DNA of 17,266 nucleotides. It comes from a virus. The translations under genes were made by a program, and so were the position numbers. The stretch lies in IMG/VR virus record IMGVR_UViG_3300020577_002861; one strand, given 5' to 3'. Below the pieces are notes generated by a model. The model ran no database searches. It was given only the letters and a program-made list of their open reading frames with translations, and was not told where the DNA came from. Shown one piece after another: positions 2,183 through 12,782 of the stretch (positions within the stretch are counted from its first letter, which is position 1; every line of letters starts with the position of its first letter).

Positions 2183-2593
2183 TTAAAGAAACCTTCCTAT
2201 TATGAATCCTGCTCCGAAAATAAGTCCCACAAGAAAGAGGATAACGGCCCAGTTAGTCTTGTATGTTGTAGCCTTTACTTCACCGTCTCCAATCTTCCAT
2301 GAATAAGACTCAAGATATTTATCTGCCAAGGTCTCGCGCACCCTTTCTCCGTCTTCTCTTTCCTTCGCTTTTTCAAGTTCCCTTAGTCTCAGCTCCACAT
2401 TTGCACTTCTCTCGTCTGGGAACAGGTCACACTCATTTAACTGTGGATGTCCTATGAAGGTATACACGTACTCTGATATATAATTAGAGCTTAGTGCCTT
2501 GTAAACAGTAAGTTCTCTAACATATTCTCCGTCTTTAACTACCCAAACAGTACTTCCGTTCTTATACTTTTGCTCTCTCTTTTTCTTTCTCAT
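2183..2593 (-). CDS. C-terminally membrane-anchored protein, unknown function
   Basis: 136 aa with a C-terminal hydrophobic helix (WAVILFLVGLIFGAGFIIGRFL). The conserved motif lies 9 nt upstream of the ATG. Confidence 0.6.
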   Translation of the reverse strand: MRKKKREQKYKNGSTVWVVKDGEYVRELTVYKALSSNYISEYVYTFIGHPQLNECDLFPDERSANVELRLRELEKAKEREDGERVRETLADKYLESYSWKIGDGEVKATTYKTNWAVILFLVGLIFGAGFIIGRFL

Positions 2594-2602
2594 TGTAAAA
2601 TT

Positions 2603-2616
2603 ATAATAAGTAAAAT
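2603..2616 (-). promoter_or_regulatory. conserved upstream motif ATTTTACTTATTAT (copy c), 9 nt before the ATG at 2593. It includes TATAAT
   Basis: Exact 14-mer repeat followed by AATTTTACA ATG. Confidence 0.5.
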
Positions 2617-2619
2617 TAT

Positions 2620-2826
2620 TTAGTCGGTATCTATCGTGCTATCCCAAGAAGTTCGAACATGGTCTTTATATCCTTCGACTGCCCGTTCTACACGCATCCT
2701 GTCTAACGCCCTACGAAGCCTGTCGGGGGCGGTTTCACCATAAAAATCATTCAGATTAACCCTCACCCTTGCCTCAACCTCAATCACATCTTCTTTCGGT
2801 TTTATAATTTCAAATTTCTTTTTCAT
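2620..2826 (-). CDS. hypothetical protein
   Basis: 68-aa ORF. Its ATG overlaps the upstream gene's stop (ATGA at 2823..2826). Confidence 0.5.
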   Translation of the reverse strand: MKKKFEIIKPKEDVIEVEARVRVNLNDFYGETAPDRLRRALDRMRVERAVEGYKDHVRTSWDSTIDTD

Positions 2827-3080
2827 TCTTTTCCAACTAGCTTCAAAGCCTCTGCATATCTCTTCTTTGGTTTAAAGTGATATTTCTTAACAAACCCGAA
2901 GTCTACAACGCCCTTTGCAAGTAGCCTGCTTCTGGCCACTGATAGTTCTTGCATATTTATTCCTGTTCCAATCAATACCTCTCCAAGTGTTGGGGGTTTC
3001 TTGCTGGTTTCCATGTACTTGAGTATATATGCCAATGTTTTTTGCTCGTCTTTAGAAAGTACTAATTTCTTCGTTTTCAT
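2823..3080 (-). CDS. putative winged-helix/HTH transcriptional regulator
   Basis: 85 aa. PTLGEVLIGTGINMQELSVARSRLLAKGVV resembles a MarR/wHTH recognition helix plus wing. Confidence 0.5.
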   Translation of the reverse strand: MKTKKLVLSKDEQKTLAYILKYMETSKKPPTLGEVLIGTGINMQELSVARSRLLAKGVVDFGFVKKYHFKPKKRYAEALKLVGKE

Positions 3081-3465: not shown

Positions 3466-3646
3466 CTTTCTTTACCTTTTCAAAATTATAAGTAACCAAT
3501 ACGTCTGAAACACCACTATATTTAGGAATCGCAATAATATCTATAATTCCTCCCCAATAAAGGTCTTTTCTATTTGCCATGATGTCGCACCAATCATTGA
3601 TCTCCTCATCGACCCCATAAGAGTTAAATAGTTTTGTCCTTATCAT
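3446..3646 (-). CDS. hypothetical protein
   Basis: 66-aa ORF with both ends overlapping its neighbours. A partial copy of the conserved motif (ATTATAAGTAA) lies inside it at 3481..3496. Confidence 0.4.
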   Translation of the reverse strand: MIRTKLFNSYGVDEEINDWCDIMANRKDLYWGGIIDIIAIPKYSGVSDVLVTYNFEKVKKDENGTV

Positions 3647-4172
3647 TTATTGCATCTTCTAATATCTTAATTTGTTCCTCTATCCATTTCTTAATTACGT
3701 TTCTTGTTCTTGTATTGAACACTACTCCATAGGTTTCGGTTGCCCCGCTCTCTTTTGTTATTCTTTGGAACTCTCCCCACTTTGCCCTAGGCTCTAGTAA
3801 CGAGTAAAAGTGTAACTGCTCCCTCTCATACCCATAAAGGTGGTGTTCTGGGTCTTTATCTCTCTCTGTAAACACCTTATAAATGCTATTTTTCGTAAGT
3901 TTGTAATCCGTTATCTTTAACCAGTCCTCATCCCATAAGTCTAATATTCCAACTAAAGTGTGCTTACCAAACTTTAGCTCAATCTTCTTCTCGTGCTCCA
4001 CATTACCACTTGTTGGAAGTGGAGTTATCTTGCTTTCCTGTATCTTGCGATGTGCCAATTTCCCATCTTCTGCTCTTTCACTGGTTGGCATCTCAAGCCC
4101 CATCATCATCTCCAACGCTCCCTGTATATCTCCATCTGATACTTTTTTTAAGGCGCTAAAACTTATTCTCAT
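3624..4172 (-). CDS. putative PD-(D/E)xK recombination exonuclease (RecB/YqaJ-like), partner of the ERF protein
   Basis: 182 aa. It carries the motifs LVGILDLW (hhGxhD), ITDYKLTK (D-x-K) and EQLHFY (QhxxY-like). It is encoded one gene downstream of the ERF recombinase. Confidence 0.45.
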   Translation of the reverse strand: MRISFSALKKVSDGDIQGALEMMMGLEMPTSERAEDGKLAHRKIQESKITPLPTSGNVEHEKKIELKFGKHTLVGILDLWDEDWLKITDYKLTKNSIYKVFTERDKDPEHHLYGYEREQLHFYSLLEPRAKWGEFQRITKESGATETYGVVFNTRTRNVIKKWIEEQIKILEDAINDKDKTI

Positions 4173-4569: not shown

Positions 4570-5205
4570 TTAGTCTTTTGATTCAATCTTTTCGTATCTC
4601 TCGGCCATAACCTCTTCAATTATCTGCGCAATAGATTCTGGATATAGATCTATATTAGCTACAAATTTATCATTAATCTTATCTAGTGCTTCTATGGTAT
4701 CCGCCTTCGCTATTGCTTCTAATGTCCTGTCTTTTAATGCCGACATATCAGGTTTGGTTTGTGGCACTGCTGGTTTATATGGGGTCTTAGCGACTTCTTT
4801 GTCCTTGCTATTATCCATACCATCAGGGTCATTCTTTGCATCGTCTATTAGGAATAGCCCGCCTAGTGCATACTTTCTCGCATAACTAGATGCCGTTCCT
4901 GTTAGTTGTGGGTCGGACATTTTAGGTCTTGCCACCTCTTCCCTTGCTAGCGCTGTAACCTCTATCGAATCTTTTCCATCCGTAAACTTTGCGGTAGCTT
5001 CAAGATAAAACCTATCTCCCAGCATTATCATCTTGTCAGATAATAAGACTAAATCTCCATTAAGCATTGGTTTGACCGCTTCTAATATTCCCTCACAACT
5101 TCTATAATTAAAATTACCAAAGTCATTATGAATGTTCTTGGGGGACTTTAATCCAATCTGTATCTTTGCCAATCTCTCGTATAAGTTAGTCTTTGTTTTT
5201 TCCAT
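4570..5205 (-). CDS. erf: ERF-family single-strand annealing protein (recombinase)
   Basis: 211 aa. The N-terminal LYERLAKIQIGLKSPKNIHNDFGNFNYRSCEGILEAVKPML and the later TGTASSYARKYALGGLF closely match my recollection of phage P22 Erf (FYARLAEIQEHLNAPKNQYNSFGKYKYRSCEDILEGVKPLL ... SSYARKY). Confidence 0.8.
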   Translation of the reverse strand: MEKTKTNLYERLAKIQIGLKSPKNIHNDFGNFNYRSCEGILEAVKPMLNGDLVLLSDKMIMLGDRFYLEATAKFTDGKDSIEVTALAREEVARPKMSDPQLTGTASSYARKYALGGLFLIDDAKNDPDGMDNSKDKEVAKTPYKPAVPQTKPDMSALKDRTLEAIAKADTIEALDKINDKFVANIDLYPESIAQIIEEVMAERYEKIESKD

Positions 5206-5374: not shown

Positions 5375-5573
5375 TCTTTTCTTTTAATAATTTAACTTGG
5401 GGCTTTCTATAAACTATAACCATTCTTACTGTCTTGTCTGTACTATCCATTGAAAATGACTTTACTGCTATGTCCCTACTACCCATAAGACCTTCTAATT
5501 CTCCCACCGTAATCTCTTTCCAGTCCATAACCCTAATCTCTGTAACTGGATTGGTAAGCGTTCTTCTTCGCAT
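5352..5573 (-). CDS. hypothetical protein
   Basis: 73-aa ORF, co-oriented and tightly packed. Confidence 0.45.
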   Translation of the reverse strand: MRRRTLTNPVTEIRVMDWKEITVGELEGLMGSRDIAVKSFSMDSTDKTVRMVIVYRKPQVKLLKEKNEKKVQN

Positions 5574-5589
5574 TTTAAAAGATTAATAA

Positions 5590-5802
5590 TTAAACATCAG
5601 AATCGCCGTAGCCTTCCAGCTTCTCTGCTGGTTCTTCGCTATCGTAGTGGTCATCAAAATTTGAATTTGGTTCATATGTATCGGTTTCAGTTAGAATATA
5701 CCCCGCTGGGATACTGAACTTAAACACTTGGTTCTCGGCCAATATCTCTCCCGTCTCTAGGTCTATTAGCCTTTTTTGTTCCACTGTCTTCGTGTCGAAC
5801 AT
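5590..5802 (-). CDS. hypothetical acidic protein. Start placed at the ATG at 5802, since the GTG at 5841 in the track falls inside the promoter
   Basis: The ORF is open from 5841, but a near-consensus sigma70 promoter (TTGACA-17-TATACT) occupies 5832..5860. This predicts a transcription start near 5824, so the first usable start is the ATG at 5802 (MFDTKTVEQKRL...). Confidence 0.5.
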   Translation of the reverse strand: MFDTKTVEQKRLIDLETGEILAENQVFKFSIPAGYILTETDTYEPNSNFDDHYDSEEPAEKLEGYGDSDV

Positions 5803-5831
5803 TTTGAGTTGGTAATATTTAACTGTTGAGA

Positions 5832-5860
5832 AGTATACCACTGATTAGTATATTTGTCAA
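5832..5860 (-). promoter_or_regulatory. near-consensus sigma70-type promoter TTGACA-N17-TATACT
   Basis: Minus strand: TTGACA (5860..5855), an exact 17-nt spacer, TATACT (5837..5832). It lies directly downstream of an intrinsic terminator and upstream of the ATG at 5802. Confidence 0.5.
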
Positions 5861-5871
5861 CCCCCTATAAG

Positions 5872-5901
5872 AGCAATAAAAAGAGCCGTTTCCAGCTCTT
5901 T
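5872..5901 (-). terminator. rho-independent terminator after the zinc-ribbon gene
   Basis: Minus strand: stem AAAGAGC / GCTCTTT around an 8-nt loop, followed by TTATTGC, which extends the U-rich tract. Confidence 0.5.
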
Positions 5902-5921
5902 GTGTTAATTACTTATCCGAT

Positions 5922-6122
5922 TTATCTCCAACCCGAAATCCCCTTTCTCCTGGCTATCTTCATACACTCAACAGAACAGAACCTCTGCTTGGTCTTGTAC
6001 CATTGTGGAAAGAATTTAATTTTCTTTTCGCAGATTTCACAAACACAGATTATAAAGTCTGTCCTCTTGCGTCTTCCTCTTTTACTTGGTATCATATAAG
6101 TCTTGTTGTTATTTTTACCCAA
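5922..6122 (-). CDS. small basic zinc-ribbon protein
   Basis: 66 aa with CVCEICEKK...CSVEC (two Cys pairs) and a basic N-terminus. An intrinsic terminator follows it. Confidence 0.5.
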   Translation of the reverse strand: MGKNNNKTYMIPSKRGRRKRTDFIICVCEICEKKIKFFPQWYKTKQRFCSVECMKIARRKGISGWR

Positions 6123-6156
6123 AGACTGGGGTTCGAAAGGGTTTCTGGTCTTTAGG

Positions 6157-6573
6157 TTAAGCTAATAAGCCCTTGTAATAATCATATTTCTTTTGAAAGT
6201 CTTCCTCTGTCCATTTAGTAACTACCCTCTCATAAAAATCTAGTTCCTGTAATATTCCATAGCCATATTGCTCTTCTAGTTTCACTGCGTATACACTTAG
6301 GTTTCCAGACTTGAAATGATTGCATTTTTTGCATTGGCAATGGACATTTTTCTCGTTATACCTCAGTGATAGCCCCGTAACTGATTTAGGTTTATAGTGT
6401 CCTGCCTGTGGCTGGTTAGTAGAACCACAACAGTAGCAGGTATAACTGTCTCTTTTTCGAATATAGGCATTAAATACCCTGTCGAGTTTCTCAATCCAAG
6501 ATCCTCGACTTAGTTTCTTTTTCCCCAACTGTTTTTCTTTTGAGTAGCTAATCATCTGATTCTGTACTTTCAA
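6157..6573 (-). CDS. HNH-type endonuclease, possibly NinG/Rap-like
   Basis: 138 aa with CYCCGSTNQPQAGHY...RYNEKNVHCQCKKCNHFKSGN (Cys pairs plus a His/Asn core). The track start is TTG. An in-frame ATG at 6555 is a plausible alternative start. Confidence 0.65.
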   Translation of the reverse strand: MKVQNQMISYSKEKQLGKKKLSRGSWIEKLDRVFNAYIRKRDSYTCYCCGSTNQPQAGHYKPKSVTGLSLRYNEKNVHCQCKKCNHFKSGNLSVYAVKLEEQYGYGILQELDFYERVVTKWTEEDFQKKYDYYKGLLA

Positions 6574-6772
6574 AGTCTCCTGTTTTAATGTCTACTAAAT
6601 ATCCAAGCCTAATACTTGCTATGATCTCCACCATGCAAGAGTGGATAATCGCCTTGCTGATAGGTTCGGATACTTCTACCAGCCCTGTAGCGTCTTTTTT
6701 ATGCGTGATTAGAGTCCTACCCTCTGGTATTCCTCTCCATTGTTTTATTGTGAAGTATGCTTCATTTTCCAT
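6548..6772 (-). CDS. hypothetical protein
   Basis: 74-aa ORF. A GC-rich direct-repeat cluster (GGGCAGT, three copies) lies immediately upstream. Confidence 0.45.
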   Translation of the reverse strand: MENEAYFTIKQWRGIPEGRTLITHKKDATGLVEVSEPISKAIIHSCMVEIIASIRLGYLVDIKTGDFESTESDD

Positions 6773-6775
6773 TTC

Positions 6776-6838
6776 AACTGCCCCATAATTTAATTATCCT
6801 TATTCATCAGTACTTTAGACTGCCCCACGACTGCCCTA
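6776..6838 (-). repeat. three direct copies of GGGCAGT (TGGGGCAGT x2 plus AGGGCAGT) upstream of the 6548..6772 gene
   Basis: On the plus strand, ctgcccca at 6778..6785 and 6820..6827, and ctgcccta at 6831..6838. The two distal copies are 10-11 bp apart. A GC-rich octamer is unusual in this AT-rich DNA. Confidence 0.5.
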
Positions 6839-7282
6839 ATCTCCATCTTCAAAATCCTTTAGGTCTGAAATATCTGGTAAGTCAAATCCAGAATACGCTG
6901 TGTGAAGTTCCTGTAGCTTCTTTAATAAATCCCCATACATAATTATCATTCTCTCTAAGAACATTTCTTTTGCATCATTCTTTGTGTAGCCATAGTCCAT
7001 GATATTAAAATCATTAGTACCTATATCCCAATACTTTCCACTCTTTTTAATCCAGTAGAGTTTCTTCTTTGAGTCAAACATTCTTTTTGTTTTCTTCTTT
7101 TCTTTTCTGGTGTGTTCGCACTCACCCATCATTTTAAACATTTCACAATCGCATTGTTTTTTCTTTGTTTTCTTTTTCATAATTTTATCTTGTAATATTT
7201 TAACCTCCTTCTTGGGCATATATTTGCCCATCCAGTACACAGTGTCCGAATCTACAAAGTGGTTTTTTGTTTTCTTTTTCAT
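6836..7282 (-). CDS. Lys-rich protein with a CxC...CxH cluster, possibly nucleic-acid binding
   Basis: 148 aa with KKKTKKKQCDCEMFKMMGECEH and repeated KKK runs. Confidence 0.5.
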   Translation of the reverse strand: MKKKTKNHFVDSDTVYWMGKYMPKKEVKILQDKIMKKKTKKKQCDCEMFKMMGECEHTRKEKKKTKRMFDSKKKLYWIKKSGKYWDIGTNDFNIMDYGYTKNDAKEMFLERMIIMYGDLLKKLQELHTAYSGFDLPDISDLKDFEDGD

Positions 7283-7581
7283 GGTTCTACATTAACATTT
7301 ATCCTGCCTTGAAATCTAGGACTAGTATAGCTTTGGGTATAGGTGCATATTTCTGTGTCCCTATCATCTCCCATTATTAAGACCGAACTGTTTCTAGTTA
7401 CAATGATATGTGGCTTGCAGTTCTCAACTGCTGGACATAATGCACATATCTGCTGAAAGAAACCGCCTAATACTTGCTTCTCTGGCGCATCTTCAAGAGG
7501 TAAAATTGCCCACAAATCTAACTGTTCAACATCTCCTATTTGAAACTTGTAACTAGTTTTTACATCCTGGTTTAACTCCAT
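7279..7581 (-). CDS. hypothetical Cys-containing protein
   Basis: 100-aa ORF. Its start overlaps 29 nt of the upstream HNH gene and its stop overlaps the next ATG. It contains CALCPAVENC. Confidence 0.4.
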   Translation of the reverse strand: MELNQDVKTSYKFQIGDVEQLDLWAILPLEDAPEKQVLGGFFQQICALCPAVENCKPHIIVTRNSSVLIMGDDRDTEICTYTQSYTSPRFQGRINVNVEP

Positions 7582-7879
7582 AACTTCTCAATCTACTATT
7601 TTTAATAAAACCCTCTAACAACATTCTCCCTAGGTGCGTTAGTTTTCCTGTATATTTATCATGTAACGCAATGTGACATTCCCCTGCTCCAACCAACACC
7701 CCATTGTTTATCGGATCATTCTCACCTCCACTATTTAAAGGTACTAGGTGATGAGCCTGTAAACTGTTGGGACACATAGCCTTCCCACACATTCTGCATA
7801 CTGTATCGCCAAACATTTTTCTGCTTTCATCAATTACTGTCGTTCTAAAGAACTGCTTTTGTTCATGGCTTCTTGGCAT
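7553..7879 (-). CDS. HNH endonuclease
   Basis: 108 aa with CRMCGKAMCPNSLQAHHLVPLNSGGENDPINNGVLVGAGECHIALHDK, a canonical CxxC...HH...N...N...CH...H pattern. Confidence 0.75.
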   Translation of the reverse strand: MPRSHEQKQFFRTTVIDESRKMFGDTVCRMCGKAMCPNSLQAHHLVPLNSGGENDPINNGVLVGAGECHIALHDKYTGKLTHLGRMLLEGFIKNSRLRSYGVKPGCKN

Positions 7880-7950
7880 TTTTCCCTGCCTCTTTAATTA
7901 AAACTTCCTTTTGTTTTTCCTGTACTTTTGTTTCTACTTTTAAGTGTGTC

Positions 7951-7983
7951 GGATCATTTGCTTTACTCCGTTCAAAATGATCC
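7951..7983. promoter_or_regulatory. perfect 9-bp inverted repeat GGATCATTT(N15)AAATGATCC in the 176-nt gap between the two paralogous HNH genes
   Basis: Read directly from the sequence. No U-tract follows on either strand, so it is probably not a terminator. Confidence 0.4.
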
Positions 7984-8055
7984 CTCTTATCACAAGATCT
8001 TAACGAATCTGGTTTTTTGTACTCTGACCAATCCTCCGTGATTCCCTCTTAAAAA

Positions 8056-8406
8056 TTATTTCTTATATGGGCACTCTGTATCTAGCTCGTATCTCTTTTT
8101 CTTTCTGTTCTCTATGAACAATCTCGTTAAGAACCTGCCTAATCCTGTTAACCCACCTTCGATGTTATGTATTTCCTTTCTATGCAAATCTTTGCAAATT
8201 AAAAGACCCACTTCTGGATCTTGAGAGTGCCTGTCAGAATATGCTTCTGAACAGTGATGAGCTTCTAGTGGTATTTCCTCTCCCTTGTCACTAAACCCAC
8301 ACTCATTCACTGGGCACGCCCTGCAAAATACTGCTCCAAACTCTCTCCTATGATTGGTGATGACGCCTTCTCGAAATTCTCTTTGATTAGGGCGTCTCTC
8401 ACTCAT
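8056..8406 (-). CDS. HNH-like nuclease, a diverged paralog of the 7553..7879 protein
   Basis: 116 aa with CRACPVNEC...EAHHC...ICKDLHRKEIHN. Its N-terminus (REFREGVITNHRREFGAVFCRAC) and C-terminus (LGRFLTRLFIENRKKKRY) align with the neighbour's (KQFFRTTVIDESRKMFGDTVCRMC and LGRMLLEGFIKNSRLRSY). Confidence 0.65.
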   Translation of the reverse strand: MSERRPNQREFREGVITNHRREFGAVFCRACPVNECGFSDKGEEIPLEAHHCSEAYSDRHSQDPEVGLLICKDLHRKEIHNIEGGLTGLGRFLTRLFIENRKKKRYELDTECPYKK

Positions 8407-8427
8407 TTCATTGCTTTAATAACTAAG

Positions 8428-8682
8428 CTAACGAGTCCCAACTGCATTGTTCTTATACCAACAGGTACTACCATATTCATCACCCTTGATGACTATAGAG
8501 TTCTCATAAGTCGTTTCGTGAGATGGTCGACAAGTAGTAAAAAACCTACAATGGGTGCATACTTCCATTAAGGTATTTAGTATTTCTTGTCTATTTGGTC
8601 GGGGAAGATTTTGAGTCTCGAACTCACCTCTGAGATAAAACAAACTTACAGCAACTTTTTCACCCGTTGGCGTTGTCAACAT
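8428..8682 (-). CDS. small Cys-rich, putative zinc-binding protein
   Basis: 84 aa with CTHCRFFTTC...STCW. Confidence 0.45.
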   Translation of the reverse strand: MLTTPTGEKVAVSLFYLRGEFETQNLPRPNRQEILNTLMEVCTHCRFFTTCRPSHETTYENSIVIKGDEYGSTCWYKNNAVGTR

Positions 8683-8742
8683 AAATTTTAAATAAAAATT
8701 CTGTTATTAATAATCTACTCCTAAGTGCTTTCAATTTGCAAA

Positions 8743-9084
8743 TTAAAAAGGGAGGTCATTAACATCAACCGTTTCCTCTGGTTTAGCTGAGGTCTTTGCT
8801 CTAAAATCCTTTGCCCTATTTGCCTCTGCTGTAGCATGGCTACTCATTTTTCTCCCTATTCTTTCAAGCAGTTCTTCCTGTGTTTCTCCGTCTAGTTTTG
8901 AAACATTTATGGAATAATACTTTTTGCCAGATTTTGCTTCTTTAGGAAACATGAAAATTTTCAAATTATCTTCCTCCTTAGAATCCCTAAACATCCAGCC
9001 ACTTAAGTATCTCATTCCACTCTTACTCTCTGTTGGGAAAACCATACCTATGTTGTAAAGGTCTGACTTCTTCTTCTCTTCCAT
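8743..9084 (-). CDS. hypothetical protein with an internal tandem motif repeat
   Basis: 113 aa. The segment MVFPTESKSGMRYLS is repeated as FMFPKEAKSGKKYYS. Confidence 0.5.
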   Translation of the reverse strand: MEEKKKSDLYNIGMVFPTESKSGMRYLSGWMFRDSKEEDNLKIFMFPKEAKSGKKYYSINVSKLDGETQEELLERIGRKMSSHATAEANRAKDFRAKTSAKPEETVDVNDLPF

Positions 9085-9106
9085 TAAAATATAATAAAAA
9101 ATAAAA

Positions 9107-9496
9107 TTACATCTTCTTTTTCTCCAATAGCCTTTGTAGTTTCACAGAGAGATCTTTTCTTTTCTTTTCCCTCTCTGCCTCTTCCTTTTCGCTAAGCGGC
9201 CTCGGATAGGTGAGTTTCTCCATCAAGTCTTTTTCTTCTTTTAGCCTCTTAGCCCTTACCTCTTCTGTTGGTTCCTTTGTTGGCTCTATCATTCTAATAT
9301 CCCTCTTCTGCACAATGGTCTTGTTAATCGTTACAAAATCACTCCCTCCCCTGAACATAGCATTGGCCAACTTCAAAAACTGTTCGTATGTTATGACCTC
9401 TATTTTCTCATATGTCATATAGACCTTGTAATTGCTTCCTTCTTCTACCTCAAAGAATAACCCATCTTGTCTCAACGCTTCTAAGTCTTTGTTCAT
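9107..9496 (-). CDS. hypothetical protein with a charged, helical C-terminal half
   Basis: 129-aa ORF. Confidence 0.5.
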   Translation of the reverse strand: MNKDLEALRQDGLFFEVEEGSNYKVYMTYEKIEVITYEQFLKLANAMFRGGSDFVTINKTIVQKRDIRMIEPTKEPTEEVRAKRLKEEKDLMEKLTYPRPLSEKEEAEREKKRKDLSVKLQRLLEKKKM

Positions 9497-9513: not shown

Positions 9514-10188
9514 TTAAATTATATCTATGCTGTGCTTGGGCTTCGTAATCCCGCCATACTTACCAAACCTATCGTTCCTAACCCAATTAAAAAAGGCGAG
9601 GCGGAAATCTTTATACTTAGTTTTGTTTGCCTGTATATAACCTGTAAAATCTTCTAGGGCTGTAACAACATCTTTGCCTGGGTTTAGATCTTTTGCTCTT
9701 AAAAGTATTTCCTCTTTATTTTCAATAAATATCCTCTCAGAGTTTATGGGTTTGTTATATATTATAATATCATTATTATCATTATTATCATTATTATCAT
9801 TATTGTTAGTGTCTTGTCTGCTGTCTTTCTGCTGTCTTTCTGCTGTCTTGTCTGTTGTCTTACCACCTTGATATTCGTTATAGTTTACTATTGTAATTAT
9901 TGAAGAAACAGAGTTTTTCTGCTGTCTTATCTGGGACTCATTCTCGAGCCATGTGAGGTAACGGCGAACCTTATCCCTACTCCACCTCCATCTCTTGGAT
10001 AAAGACACCTCACTCCACCCGACTTCCCCTCTTTCAACCTTGAGGATATTTCCCCTTACGGATATGATTCCACTCTTATGATTAGCTAATAAAAGTAAAT
10101 CAACCCAGGCCTGTGCCTTGGTAAACGGTTCTGATAACCAAATGCTGTTATCCATTATTTTTCTATGTAACCATATCCAACCTTCCAT
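9514..10188 (-). CDS. replisome-organizer / replication-initiator-like protein: an N-terminal winged-helix-like domain, a low-complexity NND linker, and a C-terminal domain
   Basis: 224 aa. The N-terminus (WLHRKIMDNSIWLSEPFTKAQAWVDLLLLANHKSGIISVRGNILKVERGEVGWSEVSLSKRW) is typical of phage replisome-organizer N-domains. The linker DTNNNDNNDNNDNND is encoded by tandem DNA repeats. Confidence 0.65.
   Translation of the reverse strand: MEGWIWLHRKIMDNSIWLSEPFTKAQAWVDLLLLANHKSGIISVRGNILKVERGEVGWSEVSLSKRWRWSRDKVRRYLTWLENESQIRQQKNSVSSIITIVNYNEYQGGKTTDKTAERQQKDSRQDTNNNDNNDNNDNNDIIIYNKPINSERIFIENKEEILLRAKDLNPGKDVVTALEDFTGYIQANKTKYKDFRLAFFNWVRNDRFGKYGGITKPKHSIDII
9762..9806. repeat. tandem 9-bp AT-rich repeat (ATTATTATC, about 4 copies) inside the initiator gene
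   Basis: cattattat is repeated. It encodes the NND repeats of the linker. Confidence 0.6.
9811..9861. repeat. tandem 11-bp repeat CTGCTGTCTTT (3-4 copies), iteron-like, inside the initiator gene
   Basis: ctgctgtcttt occurs twice exactly and twice degenerately, adjacent to the AT-rich 9-bp repeats. The 11-bp period is not a multiple of 3. Confidence 0.55.
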
Positions 10189-10361
10189 TAAAGCCTCTCC
10201 TTGGATAATAATTTATAAAGTTTTGCTATCCCCTTAAAATCTTCTTTTTCTAGTAGTTCTAAAATTTCCGCAAGTTCTTTTACCGAAATATCAAAGTTTC
10301 CATATCCAGACACGAAGAACCCTGCTTCATGTAGATTTCTTGCTTTTTCTAGGTATTTCAT
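10188..10361 (-). CDS. small helical protein (57 aa), translationally coupled to the initiator gene
   Basis: Below the track's length cutoff. MKYLEKARNLHEAGFFVSGYGNFDISVKELAEILELLEKEDFKGIAKLYKLLSKERL. Its TAA overlaps the ATG of the downstream gene (TAATG at 10186..10190). Confidence 0.4.
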   Translation of the reverse strand: MKYLEKARNLHEAGFFVSGYGNFDISVKELAEILELLEKEDFKGIAKLYKLLSKERL

Positions 10362-10386
10362 AAAGGTTTTCTAATAAAGAACCTCC

Positions 10387-10416
10387 CACCTATGAAACAT
10401 TGACGGAACATAGGTG
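10387..10416 (-). promoter_or_regulatory. hairpin with an 8-bp perfect stem (CACCTATG / CATAGGTG, 14-nt loop) about 26 nt upstream of the small ORF, next to a GGAGG
   Basis: Read directly from the sequence. Confidence 0.35.
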
Positions 10417-10710
10417 AGAGAAGGCAAAGTCCTATAAGGCTCTAGCTTCTGCTGGTTCTGTGGAAATATTTTTAGTCAATGTTGTCATAAAAATAAGCTA
10501 CTCGCTTTTTAGAAAAAAGTCAAGAGGTTTTGTAAAAAGATCCTGGTGGACATTTTGGAGAGAGACCTCCCCTCCCCAGGGTATCACCAGATGCTATCAG
10601 GCGAGTTTAAAGTGCCCTAGAACGAACGAAAATATGGAAGTGGTACATTGTACCTAGGAATCGTTTTAGAGCATTTTAAAGTCCCTGGTATAGTTCCTTT
10701 GACATTGATT

Positions 10711-10736
10711 AAAAAGAGAGGTAAATGCCCTCTCTT
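10711..10736 (-). terminator. rho-independent terminator (minus strand only)
   Basis: Minus strand: stem AGAGAGG gcattta CCTCTCT followed by TTTTTAATC. On the plus strand no U-tract follows. Confidence 0.5.
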
Positions 10737-10940
10737 CGCAAATAGTTATTTGAGCCACTACGCACAAAAGTCTTTTGCGTTAATTCAGCTTACACTTAGG
10801 GGAAGAGTTTGGCAATAAAAAACTCCTATATTGTGTTTTCAGTTGAGTGTTTAGGTCATCTGTTCGTAAACAACATAGGAGCACACAAAATTATCAGACG
10901 CGGGTTAGTTTAAAAGCAGCCCCGCAGTATCGGTGTACTG
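10711..10940 (-). ncRNA. candidate non-coding transcript of about 225 nt, bracketed by a promoter-like element and a terminator
   Basis: It runs from the predicted start just downstream of TTGCCA-17-TATATT (10974..10946) to the terminator at 10736..10711. No ORF longer than 18 codons. A Bacteroidetes-type TAATTTTG box also occurs at 10893..10886. Confidence 0.25.
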
Positions 10941-10945
10941 CTTTT
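10912..10945. terminator. bidirectional hairpin terminator
   Basis: Stem AAAAGCAG / CTGCTTTT with an inner CCG/CGG stem. U-rich tracts follow on both strands (TTTTAATAT on plus, TTTTAAAC on minus). Confidence 0.5.
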
Positions 10946-10974
10946 AATATACACCCCAACAATAAAAATGGCAA
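10946..10974 (-). promoter_or_regulatory. sigma70-like promoter-like element TTGCCA-N17-TATATT (copy 1 of a duplicated element)
   Basis: -35 at 10974..10969, -10 at 10951..10946, spacer exactly 17 nt. It is embedded in the direct repeat GGGTGTATATTRAAAAG. Confidence 0.35.
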
Positions 10975-10998
10975 GTAGCTTTGAGGAGACTACCTGCC
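10961..10998 (-). terminator. rho-independent terminator, first after the holin gene
   Basis: Minus strand: stem GGCAGGTAG / CTACTTGCC with one mismatch and an 11-nt loop, followed by ATTTTTATT. It lies 38 nt downstream of the holin stop. Confidence 0.45.
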
Positions 10999-11020
10999 AT
11001 AATCTTATACCTTCTTTTTC

Positions 11021-11049
11021 AATATACACCCAGTTTTATTTTCCTGCAA
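11021..11049 (-). promoter_or_regulatory. sigma70-like promoter-like element TTGCAG-N17-TATATT (copy 2), overlapping the holin stop codon
   Basis: -35 at 11049..11044, -10 at 11026..11021, spacer exactly 17 nt. It shares GGGTGTATATT with copy 1. Confidence 0.3.
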
Positions 11050-11345: not shown

Positions 11346-12320
11346 CTAATTTCTTTTAGAAGGAATCTTTGCAAGTAATTCCCTAAGCCATTTAACAAAT
11401 CTTGCAAGGATTGTAACAGTTGGATCAGGATTAACTCCGCCTCCTCCGCTTGCTTGGCAAGCTCTAAGTTCTTCTTGAAGTCGTTCATTGTTCTTGGTGA
11501 GAACTTCAATAGCACTCTCCTTTTTGCTAAGGTCTTCTTCCAAGTTCTCCTGAGTAGCTGCTGATGCAGCTTTGAAATCAGAAAAGTCAGCATCAAGTTT
11601 ATCTGCCCTAAGAAGTAAATCTTGCTTCTCTTGAGTGCATACTGCAAGCTTAGTATTTAGATCTGTTATAGACCCATTAAGGCTCGAAATTTGACCATCT
11701 TTTTCATTGAGTAGACCCTTAACCGTATTAAGTTCTGTTTGAAGTGCATTTATTTGTCTTCGTAATTCTTCGATCATTTTGTCTGCTGACTTAAAAAGTA
11801 ATTTTAATGCTATTGGATTTCCTTTAGGTATTCCAGTCCAACTAGAACTTTGATACCAACTCTGTAATCCATTCTCATTCTTAGAAACCCAAACCTCTCC
11901 TGTGTCTACAAATCTACCGCCATCACACAAAGCATTGTTTCCACCTCCATTTCTTAGCCATCTAACAATGCAAGTCCAGTGAAGATGAGGTTGTGCCGTT
12001 CCGTTACTATCTCCGCTCTTAGTTATGACCTGACCTTGTTTATAGAAAGCTCCCACTTTAGGTAAATTAGGTGTGTTTATGTGAACGAATTGGTGTTGGA
12101 AGTGAGCCTTATTACCATCTTCCATTTCGTAAACCTTGGGACAGTCTAGTATAAAACTATCCTTCCCATTGGTGCTTAGGATCGTTCCGTCATCAGGGGC
12201 TACAAATGGAAAGTAGACCATGCCCTGGTGTCCATAATCTGTACCCGCATGAGGTACCGTTCTGAAAGATTGGTAATCAGCAAAATTACTGGTTATATGG
12301 TGATCGGTGCACTTTATCAT
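11346..12320 (-). CDS. M23-family metallopeptidase lysin with a C-terminal coiled coil and a basic amphipathic tail
   Basis: 324 aa. HAGTDYG (HxxxD) and HLHW (HxH) are M23 zinc-ligand motifs. The C-terminal ~150 aa form a heptad-rich coiled coil ending in GGGGVNPDPTVTILARFVKWLRELLAKIPSKRN. Confidence 0.75.
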   Translation of the reverse strand: MIKCTDHHITSNFADYQSFRTVPHAGTDYGHQGMVYFPFVAPDDGTILSTNGKDSFILDCPKVYEMEDGNKAHFQHQFVHINTPNLPKVGAFYKQGQVITKSGDSNGTAQPHLHWTCIVRWLRNGGGNNALCDGGRFVDTGEVWVSKNENGLQSWYQSSSWTGIPKGNPIALKLLFKSADKMIEELRRQINALQTELNTVKGLLNEKDGQISSLNGSITDLNTKLAVCTQEKQDLLLRADKLDADFSDFKAASAATQENLEEDLSKKESAIEVLTKNNERLQEELRACQASGGGGVNPDPTVTILARFVKWLRELLAKIPSKRN

Positions 12321-12782
12321 TTATTCTATTATTCTAAAATATTCTGATCTCTGGATTTCTTTGACCTCTGTAAATGGGGAAACTTTAAAGTATAACTCTC
12401 TTACAATTCTTACCTTTTCTCCAACTGGGATCTCTTTAGGGATAGCTATCTCATTGGTAAAAGTGCTACACCCTGTGGCAAAGTTCGACTTTCTTTCTGG
12501 TAGCTCCCAGACAACGCCATCCTCAATCTTCGTTTCTATCCTAGCCTCTAACGGTAAAAACTTACAGTAATCTAAAATAAGATAAACAGTGCCACCCTTC
12601 TTAACCTCTTTGTTGTCGTTTAGAACGGCTATGACCTCGTTTTTAATATCAACTACATTAGGGGGAAAAATATATACGAACAAACAGTAGACTACGAAAA
12701 GCACCGTTATCCCAAAACTTATACCCACCATCCAATTATAAAGTGTTCTCATTTTAGATCTCTTTTTAATCTCAACTTTCAT
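12321..12782 (-). CDS. signal-anchored (N-terminal TM) protein in the lysis cassette, function unknown. Possibly a spanin-like or lysis accessory protein
   Basis: 153 aa with an N-terminal TM segment (WMVGISFGITVLFVVYCLFVYIF). It directly abuts the lysin start and overlaps the upstream gene by 4 nt. Confidence 0.5.
   Translation of the reverse strand: MKVEIKKRSKMRTLYNWMVGISFGITVLFVVYCLFVYIFPPNVVDIKNEVIAVLNDNKEVKKGGTVYLILDYCKFLPLEARIETKIEDGVVWELPERKSNFATGCSTFTNEIAIPKEIPVGEKVRIVRELYFKVSPFTEVKEIQRSEYFRIIE

Follow-up and report, generated by a model that had tools for sequence, protein, structure and literature searches.

Two neighbouring HNH-type genes in a compact phage gene cluster raise the question of whether they were duplicated in place or brought together as separate cassettes. 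The cluster occupies positions 5,922–8,682 of the IMG/VR virus record IMGVR_UViG_3300020577_002861, the whole of which (17,266 nt) is referred to here as the window. A preliminary description had seen in this cluster an accessory island of HNH nucleases and Cys-rich proteins, actively evolving by duplication and divergence. Every open reading frame that it listed was found, all on the minus strand, and the assignment of the products to the HNH superfamily or to Cys-rich proteins is supported by sequence analysis. Comparison with about 10 independent contexts, mainly short metagenomic contigs (labelled L001, L002 and so on), suggests that the cluster is a recombination hotspot, in which small interchangeable gene cassettes would be arranged around conserved anchor genes, with a 108-aa HNH gene as a putative free-standing mobile endonuclease gene. 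The probability of this reading as a whole, including placement of the region in the distal half of an early operon for replication and recombination, in an uncultivated siphovirus lineage with distant affinities to Bacillus phages, was estimated at about 0.6.

In the operon, a gene for a DnaD-like loader is followed by the HNH/Cys cluster and then by a terminator. The operon ends in an intrinsic-terminator-like hairpin with a 9-bp stem and a T-run (5901–5880, minus strand), within the interval 5872–5901 for which a terminator had been proposed. Downstream of the hairpin lie a near-consensus promoter (TTGACA-17-TATACT with TG, 5860–5832, minus strand) and the next unit, which encodes ERF and a PD-(D/E)XK exonuclease. 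A lysis cassette stands between the cluster and the structural genes, and no terminase gene adjoins the cluster.

The gene content of the cluster varies between relatives, and therefore the same genes do not stand in the same order everywhere. To this extent the term accessory island is apt, but three elements recur in all relatives that offer enough sequence: the 4-Cys gene at 7279–7581, the gene of a 74-aa protein, and the C-terminal domain of a Lys-rich protein. Judged from sequence comparison, these anchor genes are core rather than accessory. All four small genes tested in the region by dN/dS are under purifying selection. The locus offers a clean natural example of phage early operons rebuilt by cassettes around small conserved anchors, with exact junctions known for one HNH gene, that of the 108-aa protein. 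This cassette mosaicism is ordinary phage genome mosaicism and leaves the current understanding of phage biology unchanged.

The two HNH genes encode proteins of 116 aa (8056–8406, minus strand) and 108 aa (7553–7879, minus strand). Earlier regarded as clear paralogs alike at both termini, they are indeed homologous over their full length, with 31% identity in BLASTP (E 6e-11) and a 98% probability (E 2.5e-13) when the two clades were aligned with hhalign. The 108-aa protein is a canonical HNH protein with CxxC, HH (H43, H44), the central Asn (N59/N60), CH (H69) and a distal His (H73), and its identification as an HNH nuclease was confirmed by PF01844 (24.2 bits against a cutoff of 21.4 bits). 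The 116-aa product gave no match of its own in Pfam, NCBIfam or PADLOC; its HNH assignment comes from homology to the 108-aa copy and from the family profile, which matches the McrA HNH domain. An AlphaFold2 model of this protein, built on a 5-sequence alignment, reached a pLDDT of only 44.6, and therefore its ββα-Me fold is predicted from sequence homology alone.

The analysis shows that the two proteins, both under purifying selection, are members of a single small McrA-like HNH subfamily, of which 1.84 billion protein clusters contain about 25 representatives. In an alignment of 19 members, H50, H51 and H75 (116-aa numbering) are invariant and H80 is nearly so, while Asn occupies the central column in only about half of the sequences, and just 5 of the 19 pass the Pfam HNH model. 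The best solved match of the joint profile is the HNH domain of Escherichia coli McrA (PDB 6GHC, E 7.6e-5), with which, as with PF01844, the subfamily shares the layout CxxC ... (E/Q)xHH ... N ... C..CH...H. Unlike McrA, the 116-aa and 108-aa proteins have no N-terminal 5-methylcytosine-reading domain, and the 116 type lacks the Asn. The first CxxC is kept in the subfamily, whereas of the second a single Cys is left, placed alternately at position 71 or 74 (C71 in the 116-aa and C68 in the 108-aa protein). Further departures from McrA are a subfamily-specific N-terminal helix (F-R..V...H...FG) and a C-terminal helix with a Cys. This conserved Cys (C112 and C106, respectively) may complete the zinc site in the subfamily, and probably does so in the 116-aa protein.

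The supposition that the tandem arose by local duplication, with the Asn-less copy decaying or put to new use as an inhibitor or DNA-binding protein with no catalytic activity, draws on the collinear homology of the two proteins at both termini, on the distance of only 176 nt between their genes, and on the 116-aa protein having no Asn and being missed by the Pfam HNH model. It is nevertheless improbable. Identity is just 31%, dS between the two genes is saturated, and each type occurs alone in other contigs with orthologues 83–95% identical: the 116 type without the 108 type in L001, L002, L006 and L011–14, and the 108 type without the 116 type in L007 and L010 (L008 and L018 also carry the 108 type, and these contigs end just upstream). 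Relative to the closest relative, L011, the window shows a clean indel of about 310 nt that corresponds exactly to the 108-aa gene, with flanks 85–90% identical; therefore the tandem state would have arisen by cassette insertion or recombination and not by local duplication. The indel itself could equally be explained by a deletion in the L011 lineage. Thus, recent in situ duplication is largely refuted, and an older duplication in the gene pool with later reassortment is still conceivable.

As for decay, the canonical Asn has indeed gone from the upstream copy, where V66 stands in the position of the HNH Asn of the 108-aa copy and McrA, but the copy is not degenerate. Its gene has the lowest dN/dS in the region (0.02–0.10) and is the most constrained one, and the protein keeps C28, C31, H50, H51, C71, H75, H80 and C112, including the catalytic and metal-binding His residues. 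The 116 type is also commoner among the relatives and more conserved than the 108 type, and the Asn varies in subfamily members with no second copy nearby as well. Rather than a repurposed remnant, the 116-aa protein would be a His-Me-finger nuclease or nickase that is functional and has long been resident. Loss of the HNH Asn need not signify decay.

The slot of the 108-aa gene is contested by three HNH families. It is empty in L011–14, and is occupied in L009 by an unrelated HNH_3 endonuclease gene with its own promoter (TTGACG-17-TATAGT) and in L007 by an HNH gene together with a C5 methylase gene. In the window, the insertion point of the 108-aa cassette coincides exactly with the start codon of the downstream 4-Cys gene, to which the cassette gives a new N-terminus, MELNQDVKT. 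The 108-aa gene has a dN/dS of 0.05–0.3, and orthologues of its product are 83–90% identical.

In these respects the 108-aa gene appears to behave like a homing-type HNH endonuclease gene that is free-standing and mobile. Free-standing homing genes of phages include the mobE and seg genes of T4 (PMC2790892, PMC2988022), and Skunavirus siphoviruses of Firmicutes carry multiple HNH endonuclease genes, which differ in number and position and group according to where they are inserted (PMC12724721). Shared with such genes are the position between conserved genes with no intron, the presence or absence of an ORF-sized segment among relatives, several HNH genes per genome in varying number and position, different HNH families in one slot, and mosaic flanks. 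Unlike them, the 108-aa gene has no promoter of its own, and Pfam, PHROG and NCBIfam-type profile scans of its product revealed the HNH core and a conserved C-terminal helix only, with no DNA-recognition module (NUMOD, AP2 or HTH); homing is putative here. The lactococcal Skunavirus HNH endonucleases are I-HmuI-like (PMC12724721); the 108-aa protein differs from the I-HmuI, HNH_3 and NUMOD types in belonging to the McrA-like subfamily. As a site-specific homing enzyme, it would be rather small (108 aa). The gene would spread from one co-infecting relative to another by cutting DNA near the anchor gene, with subsequent recombinational repair, for which the same region encodes the required ERF, exonuclease and NinG functions.

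A different role, as restriction-like or methylation-coupled nucleases that, together with a phage methyltransferase, would destroy host or competitor DNA lacking protection, is unlikely for the 116/108 family. A short C5 cytosine methylase gene (PF00145) follows three divergent members, in L007 and L016 with overlapping stop and start codons and in L015 with one gene between. The three methylases show hardly any relationship among themselves, so the pairing seems to have occurred repeatedly. In L002, an MT-A70 methylase is encoded two genes upstream of the 116 gene, PADLOC gave a weak type IV REase match for the 108-aa protein, and McrA is the best solved relative of the family. However, the likeness to McrA is limited to the generic HNH core; no methylase gene adjoins the HNH genes in the window, as a cognate methyltransferase of a type II restriction-modification pair would, or in L001, L008, L010, L011–14 and L017; and the window proteins scanned against Pfam or PHROGs, which covered every ORF of at least 200 aa, included no methylase. 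Moreover, methylases are frequent morons at phage hotspots anyway. Pairing of another kind, in which HNH and 4-Cys proteins form cognate pairs of a nuclease with a specificity subunit or with an immunity protein or inhibitor, is suggested by the duplication of both families in one locus. In the window, the genes of the 84-aa 4-Cys and 116-aa HNH proteins are separated by a 21-nt spacer and those of the 108-aa HNH and 100-aa 4-Cys proteins overlap by 29 nt, while 1 nt lies between the 116 gene and the 4-Cys anchor gene in L001, L002 and L006. We consider such pairs a poor prospect, since the two window pairs have opposite gene order, the anchor gene also follows the unrelated HNH_3 gene (L009), a methylase gene (L007) or a small ORF (L011–14), and the distant HNH members of L015, L016 and L017 have no Cys-type neighbour. 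A role as terminase-associated packaging factors is very improbable indeed: the small HNH proteins resemble HK97 gp74 in size (about 110 aa), single HNH core and phage origin, but their genes lie between the DnaD-like loader and ERF in the early operon, beyond the lysis cassette and not beside a terminase. The cassette hotspot with a mobile 108-aa gene thus remains the preferred reading. A more speculative view, to which little credence is attached, is that the 116/108 subfamily is a small, previously undescribed group of constrained phage nucleases, rather than selfish homing enzymes, that would make up, with the paralogous 4-Cys (Zn or Fe-S) proteins or recurrent short C5 methylases as partners, a minimal modular nuclease system beside a 58-codon gene that is kept by purifying selection despite its ACG or ATA start.

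Both Cys-cluster proteins that had been proposed were found, as a 100-aa protein with four Cys residues (C46, C49, C55 and C79; 7279–7581, minus strand), which is the anchor present in every relative and is termed Cys~97, and an 84-aa protein (8428–8682, minus strand). They are mutually paralogous (E 3e-6), share the pattern CxxCx5C[KR]P...G...C, and constitute a new protein family; family and fold searches with the Cys~97 protein gave no match. Although the CxxCx5C spacing is reminiscent of WhiB-like (Wbl) Fe-S proteins, this identity was rejected: the top PDB match, WhiB3, had an E of 0.89 and no significance, no Cys precedes the CxxCx5C, as it would in the WhiB arrangement C-x(14-22)-C-x2-C-x5-C, the fourth Cys lies about 24 residues C-terminal, and the G[VI]WGG turn is missing. 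The 84-aa gene is an optional cassette, with homologues in L010 (47%) and L001 (24%) and none in L002, L009 and L011–14. The Cys~97 gene, under purifying selection (dN/dS 0.03–0.22), is internally mosaic when compared in thirds. In its 5' third, identity is 91.6% between the window and L008, 96.2% between L007 and L009, and about 60% to L001, L002 and L006; in the 3' third, it is 93.3% between L002 and L008 and 70.2% between the window and L008. Unlike the 3' third, the 5' third co-varies with the upstream cassette, which could fit co-conversion but also simple linkage or mosaicism.

The interval between the two HNH genes (7880–8055), described earlier as a 176-nt intergenic gap, is filled by a conserved 58-codon ORF (7863–8039, minus strand; TEDWSEYKKPDSLRSCDK...AGKNAKKP). 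Its substitutions are biased to third codon positions (8/7/19 by codon position), and its frame has 14 synonymous versus 10 non-synonymous codons, where the other two frames give 3/25 and 0/27; dN/dS is 0.03–0.16. The start position is ACG in the window and L007, ATA in L011–14 and ATG in L009, and an in-frame TAA lies at 8051–8049. The ORF is thus a candidate non-AUG-initiated gene with a near-cognate start codon, and a gap with no called ORF is not necessarily non-coding. Together with the small new HNH subfamily and the new 4-Cys family, this candidate makes up the yield of the locus. The perfect 9-bp inverted repeat noted earlier in the gap is present at 7951–7959 and 7975–7983 (GGATCATTT/AAATGATCC, 15-nt loop) and sits within the ORF. 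Three perfect inverted repeats of at least 9 nt occur in 3 kb, that is, at chance level, and the repeat has one mismatch in L011 and is absent from L009; it is probably due to chance and unconserved.

Another slot of the cluster is occupied in the window by a NinG/Rap-type structure-specific endonuclease of the HNH superfamily (6157–6573, minus strand), where an HNH-type nuclease had been predicted; it matches PF05766 (90.4 bits, E 1.8e-25, cutoff 25.4 bits) and the PHROG NinG/Rap family phrog_5034 (E 1.6e-26). Like NinG/Rap of lambda, it is encoded among recombination genes and matches the catalytic two-thirds of the profile (positions 67–186 of 193), but the product is shorter (about 132 aa). 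Its translation probably begins with the ATG at 6555, which overlaps the stop codon of the 74-aa gene. Across the relatives, and again unlike lambda, this slot holds three different nuclease bodies on one N-terminus, the non-orthologous HNH-type proteins having in common the first ~12 residues only, (S/K)Y(S/T)K(E/Q)KQLG(K/S)K(K/R). NinG and its replacements would resolve recombination intermediates.

The protein encoded at 5922–6122 (minus strand; likely true start ATG at 6095) shows the CxxC...FCSxxC pattern of the zinc ribbon that had been attributed to it, but the FCS-type profile matches were sub-threshold: the FCS/MYM-type profiles zf-FLZ and zf-FCS_1 scored 14 against 23.4 bits and 14.2 against 26.6 bits, with E values of 0.035–0.048 for zf-FLZ/zf-FCS. 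In PHROGs, phrog_1271 was matched with an E of 0.0022. Its gene is an optional cassette with 37%-identical homologues in L002 and L009, and is missing from the slot in L001. The 74-aa anchor protein (6548–6772, minus strand), for which Pfam and PHROG searches gave no family, is 50–90% identical among the relatives with enough sequence, all of which have it. In the Lys-rich protein (6836–7282, minus strand), comparison with relatives identified the CxC...CxH knuckle QCDCEMFKMMGECEH as an optional insert of about 23 aa beside the conserved C-terminal domain. The window version has an extra 34-aa N-terminal extension produced by a direct repeat of the start region with 102-nt spacing, and therefore the true start of this protein may be M35.

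Comparison of the window with related contigs (L001–L018), most of them short and metagenomic, confirmed that the cluster of small nuclease and cysteine-rich genes is variable, accessory-like, and rich in HNH genes, and the best-supported interpretation is that of a cassette hotspot around conserved anchors. Contexts were collected via three minus-strand products of the window: the 116-aa HNH-family protein (8056–8406), the 108-aa HNH protein (HNH108, 7553–7879), and the four-cysteine protein Cys100 (7279–7581), encoded by the anchor gene Cys~97 kept in the relatives. The 116-aa gene is followed by Cys97 after a 1-nt spacer in L001, L002, and L006, by a small ORF and Cys95 in L011–L014, and by the small ORF, HNH108, and Cys100 in the window. 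L008 carries the small ORF, HNH108, and Cys100, and L018 carries HNH108 and Cys99. A metallophosphatase gene precedes a 66-aa product, the small ORF, HNH106, a C5 methylase, and Cys95 in L007, and a 69-aa product, the small ORF, an HNH_3 gene (198 aa) with its own promoter (TTGACG-17-TATAGT), and Cys95 in L009; the order in L010 is a Cys84-like gene, metallophosphatase, an HNH108-like gene (55%), and Cys103.

Alignment of the window with L011 revealed one clean indel of about 310 nt, with both flanks 85–90% identical, which starts at an ATG common to HNH108 and the L011 Cys95 gene and stops just before TAGTTA(C/T)AAGTT. The new N-terminus of the window Cys gene is also supplied by the HNH108 cassette. 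Microhomology with L007 was found where the stop codon of the 116-aa gene meets the small ORF (AAGAAATAATT versus AAGAAGATAATT). Judging from this alignment, the tandem 116/108 state arose by cassette insertion. The preliminary description had proposed duplication and divergence; a recent in situ duplication is largely refuted by the clean indel and by the separate occurrence of the two types in the relatives.

Other parts of the cluster are variable as well. The gene at 6157–6573 (minus strand) encodes a NinG/Rap endonuclease (Pfam 90.4 bits, E 1.8e-25; PHROG 1.6e-26), also present in L011–L014, and its slot is occupied by a PF01844/HNH_2-type protein in L001 (6209–6604) and L009 (10702–11091), and by a "HH..N..H" protein of about 172 aa without cysteines in L002 (11340–11855), L010 (10954–11478), and L018 (1123–1647). 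These three unrelated-looking bodies open near-identically over about 12 residues, (S/K)Y(S/T)K(E/Q)KQLG(K/S)K(K/R), a pattern suggesting that a recombination junction lies within the gene's 5' end. In the Lys-rich protein (6836–7282, minus strand), the CxC...CxH knuckle is an optional insert of about 23 aa, absent in L018, L011, and L001, and the extra 34 N-terminal residues in the window, absent from L002 and L010, come from a 27-nt direct repeat (7161–7187 and 7263–7289, 85% identical, 102 nt apart) duplicating the ATGAAAAAGAAAACAAA start of the gene. The window and L009 carry the zinc-ribbon gene (5922–6122, minus strand, in the window), L002 has two copies, and L001 lacks it in the corresponding slot. 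The Cys~97 anchor itself is internally mosaic, its 5' and 3' thirds showing discordant similarity: the 5' third tracks the upstream cassette (window–L008 91.6%, L007–L009 96.2%, about 60% to the type directly following the 116-aa gene), and the 3' third has another history (L002–L008 93.3%, window–L008 70.2%). The L002–L008 similarity is 62.8% in the 5' third versus 93.3% in the 3' third.

The 116-aa and 108-aa proteins are full-length homologues (BLASTP 31% identity, E 6e-11; hhalign between the two clades, 98% probability, E 2.5e-13). The 108-aa protein passes the Pfam HNH cutoff (24.2 versus 21.4 bits); the 116-aa protein matched no Pfam, NCBIfam, or PADLOC model and is assigned to HNH via this homology. 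When 1.84 billion cluster representatives were searched exhaustively with a profile, only 25 proteins reached E<=1e-3, about 17 of them small (90–138 aa) full-length relatives, and Pfam HNH is matched by 5 of 19 family members. The family profile matches HNH domains from McrA (6GHC, E 7.6e-5) and from a group II intron maturase (6ME0, E 0.002). Residues F11, C28, A49, H50, H51, and H75 are invariant in the family alignment and H80 is nearly so, while only about half of the members have Asn in the canonical HNH Asn column. The 116-aa protein indeed lacks this Asn, as described earlier, and carries V66. HNH chemistry of the colicin E9/E7 and McrA type employs a His of the HH dyad as general base, together with distal metal-binding His residues; by the alignment, the 116-aa protein keeps these residues despite V66. 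The AlphaFold2 model of the protein (pLDDT 44.6) was too poor for its fold to be read.

The orthologues of the 116-aa protein in L001, L002, L006, and L011–L014 share 90–95% protein identity. Pairwise dN/dS of the gene is 0.02–0.10, at dS of 0.5–1.7, the lowest of the four genes compared (0.05–0.3 for the 108 type, 0.03–0.22 for Cys~97, and 0.03–0.16 for the small ORF). Therefore, this copy is not degenerate, contrary to the earlier proposal; it is a constrained and probably active family member.

The 176 nt between the 116-aa and 108-aa genes, previously regarded as intergenic, are kept in L007, L008, L009, and L011–L014 and contain a single open frame of 58–59 codons across homologues (8039..7863, minus strand, in the window; 9191–9370 in L009, 6847–7023 in L011, and 1029–1205 in L007). 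Between the window and L007, substitutions at codon positions 1/2/3 number 8/7/19; of the codon changes in this frame, 14 are synonymous and 10 non-synonymous, versus 3/25 and 0/27 in the remaining two; exchanges include Ser TCG<->AGT and Arg-Ser CGG AGT<->AGG TCT. The L009 homologue is a called 59-aa gene starting with ATG; at the equivalent position, L011–L014 have ATA, and both the window and L007 have ACG. In the window, an in-frame TAA (8051–8049) lies four codons upstream of this position, with E-G-I after it, and the start position is preceded by a purine-rich SD-like stretch. Copies that lack an ATG retain a low dN/dS, so translation presumably begins at a near-cognate codon or depends on coupling, and the ORF represents a candidate small gene of this kind. 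Frameshifting or readthrough from the upstream gene was rejected because the L009 copy has its own ATG and a different frame from that gene, and a +1 shift fusing the ORF to HNH108 because the Cys gene comes next in L011–L014. The perfect 9-bp inverted repeat reported for the gap is present, but it lies within the ORF, has a mismatch in L011, is absent in L009, and has two equally good counterparts within 3 kb; it is therefore treated as a chance occurrence rather than a regulatory element. No Rfam family matched the window at gathering thresholds, and the "gap" is thus devoid of an intron or riboswitch.

The Cys-cluster proteins encoded at 7279–7581 and 8428–8682 (minus strand) are paralogs, with C46, C49, P57, and G71 invariant and C55 and C79 conserved at 90% or more; two database members of the Cys~97 gene have a Cys-to-Tyr change at C55 or C79. 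They had no family, PDB, or fold match, and NCBIfam and PADLOC gave nothing significant for them or for the small ORF. The AlphaFold2 model of Cys100 (pLDDT 56) was too poor to use, its Foldseek search against PDB yielding nothing below E 0.37, and a WhiB-like identity was rejected on a non-significant match and the wrong Cys topology. The window layout fits cognate pairing of HNH and Cys proteins, an idea weakened by the contexts in L009, L011, and L015–L017. A restriction-like, methylase-coupled role of the 116/108 proteins is suggested by three independent adjacencies of HNH and C5 methylase genes and by the similarity to McrA, although no methylase adjoins the HNH genes of the window. The methylases following three divergent family members are short (about 200 aa; L007 1506–2111, L016 967–1185, L015 1107–1721) and barely related to one another; the stop and start codons overlap in two contigs, and one gene intervenes in the third. 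A packaging role, considered possible in the preliminary description, is excluded by genomic position.

For the 108-aa gene, the genomic signature is that of a mobile, homing-type endonuclease gene, an assignment made with moderate confidence since the protein is small and lacks a recognition domain. Searches of GenBank phages gave no DNA match to 5500–9200 and no tblastn match to the 108-aa, 116-aa, and Cys100 proteins, so the cluster region is unmatched by any cultured phage there; relatives of the HNH pair were not found in GTDB genome contigs, nor was the 108 type in IMG/VR. T4-like (PMC2988022) and Skunavirus (PMC12724721) phages are rich in free-standing HNH genes, and the hotspot layout resembles theirs. 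The cluster is a case of the already known HNH cassette mosaicism of phages; the original observation was largely real and its interpretation partly right, the errors concerning duplication, the "degenerate" copy, and the gap.

All genes of the 17.3-kb window (GC about 0.37) are minus-strand genes. Those at the high-coordinate end specify tail and virion proteins that match Bacillus phages distantly (24–30%), and are followed by an M23-peptidase endolysin (11346–12320) and, near it, a holin-like gene between the virion genes and the early operon. This operon is opened by a DnaD-like helicase loader (9514–10188; phrog_2514, 3.9e-29), has the HNH/Cys cluster as its distal part, and ends at a terminator hairpin (5901..5880), directly followed by a near-consensus promoter (5860..5832). 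The downstream unit includes ERF (4570–5205), a weak, below-cutoff match to PD-(D/E)XK nucleases (3624–4172; E 0.00086, 19.7 bits versus 22), and a 268-aa protein (1289–2095) with two homing-endonuclease-associated repeats (PF18780, 3e-24) and no detected nuclease domain, which may be another homing-endonuclease-related gene. The region from the holin-like gene to the first early gene (10361–11036, about 675 nt) lacks a long minus-strand ORF, has relaxed GC skew, small plus-strand ORFs, and a promoter-like site (10974..10946, minus strand), and is probably an early control region. In L011, a NUMOD4+HNH_3 endonuclease gene (2526–3032) lies directly upstream of the M23 endolysin, and the equivalent position in the window holds an unassigned 153-aa ORF (12321–12782, minus strand); a further variable slot for endonucleases may exist here.
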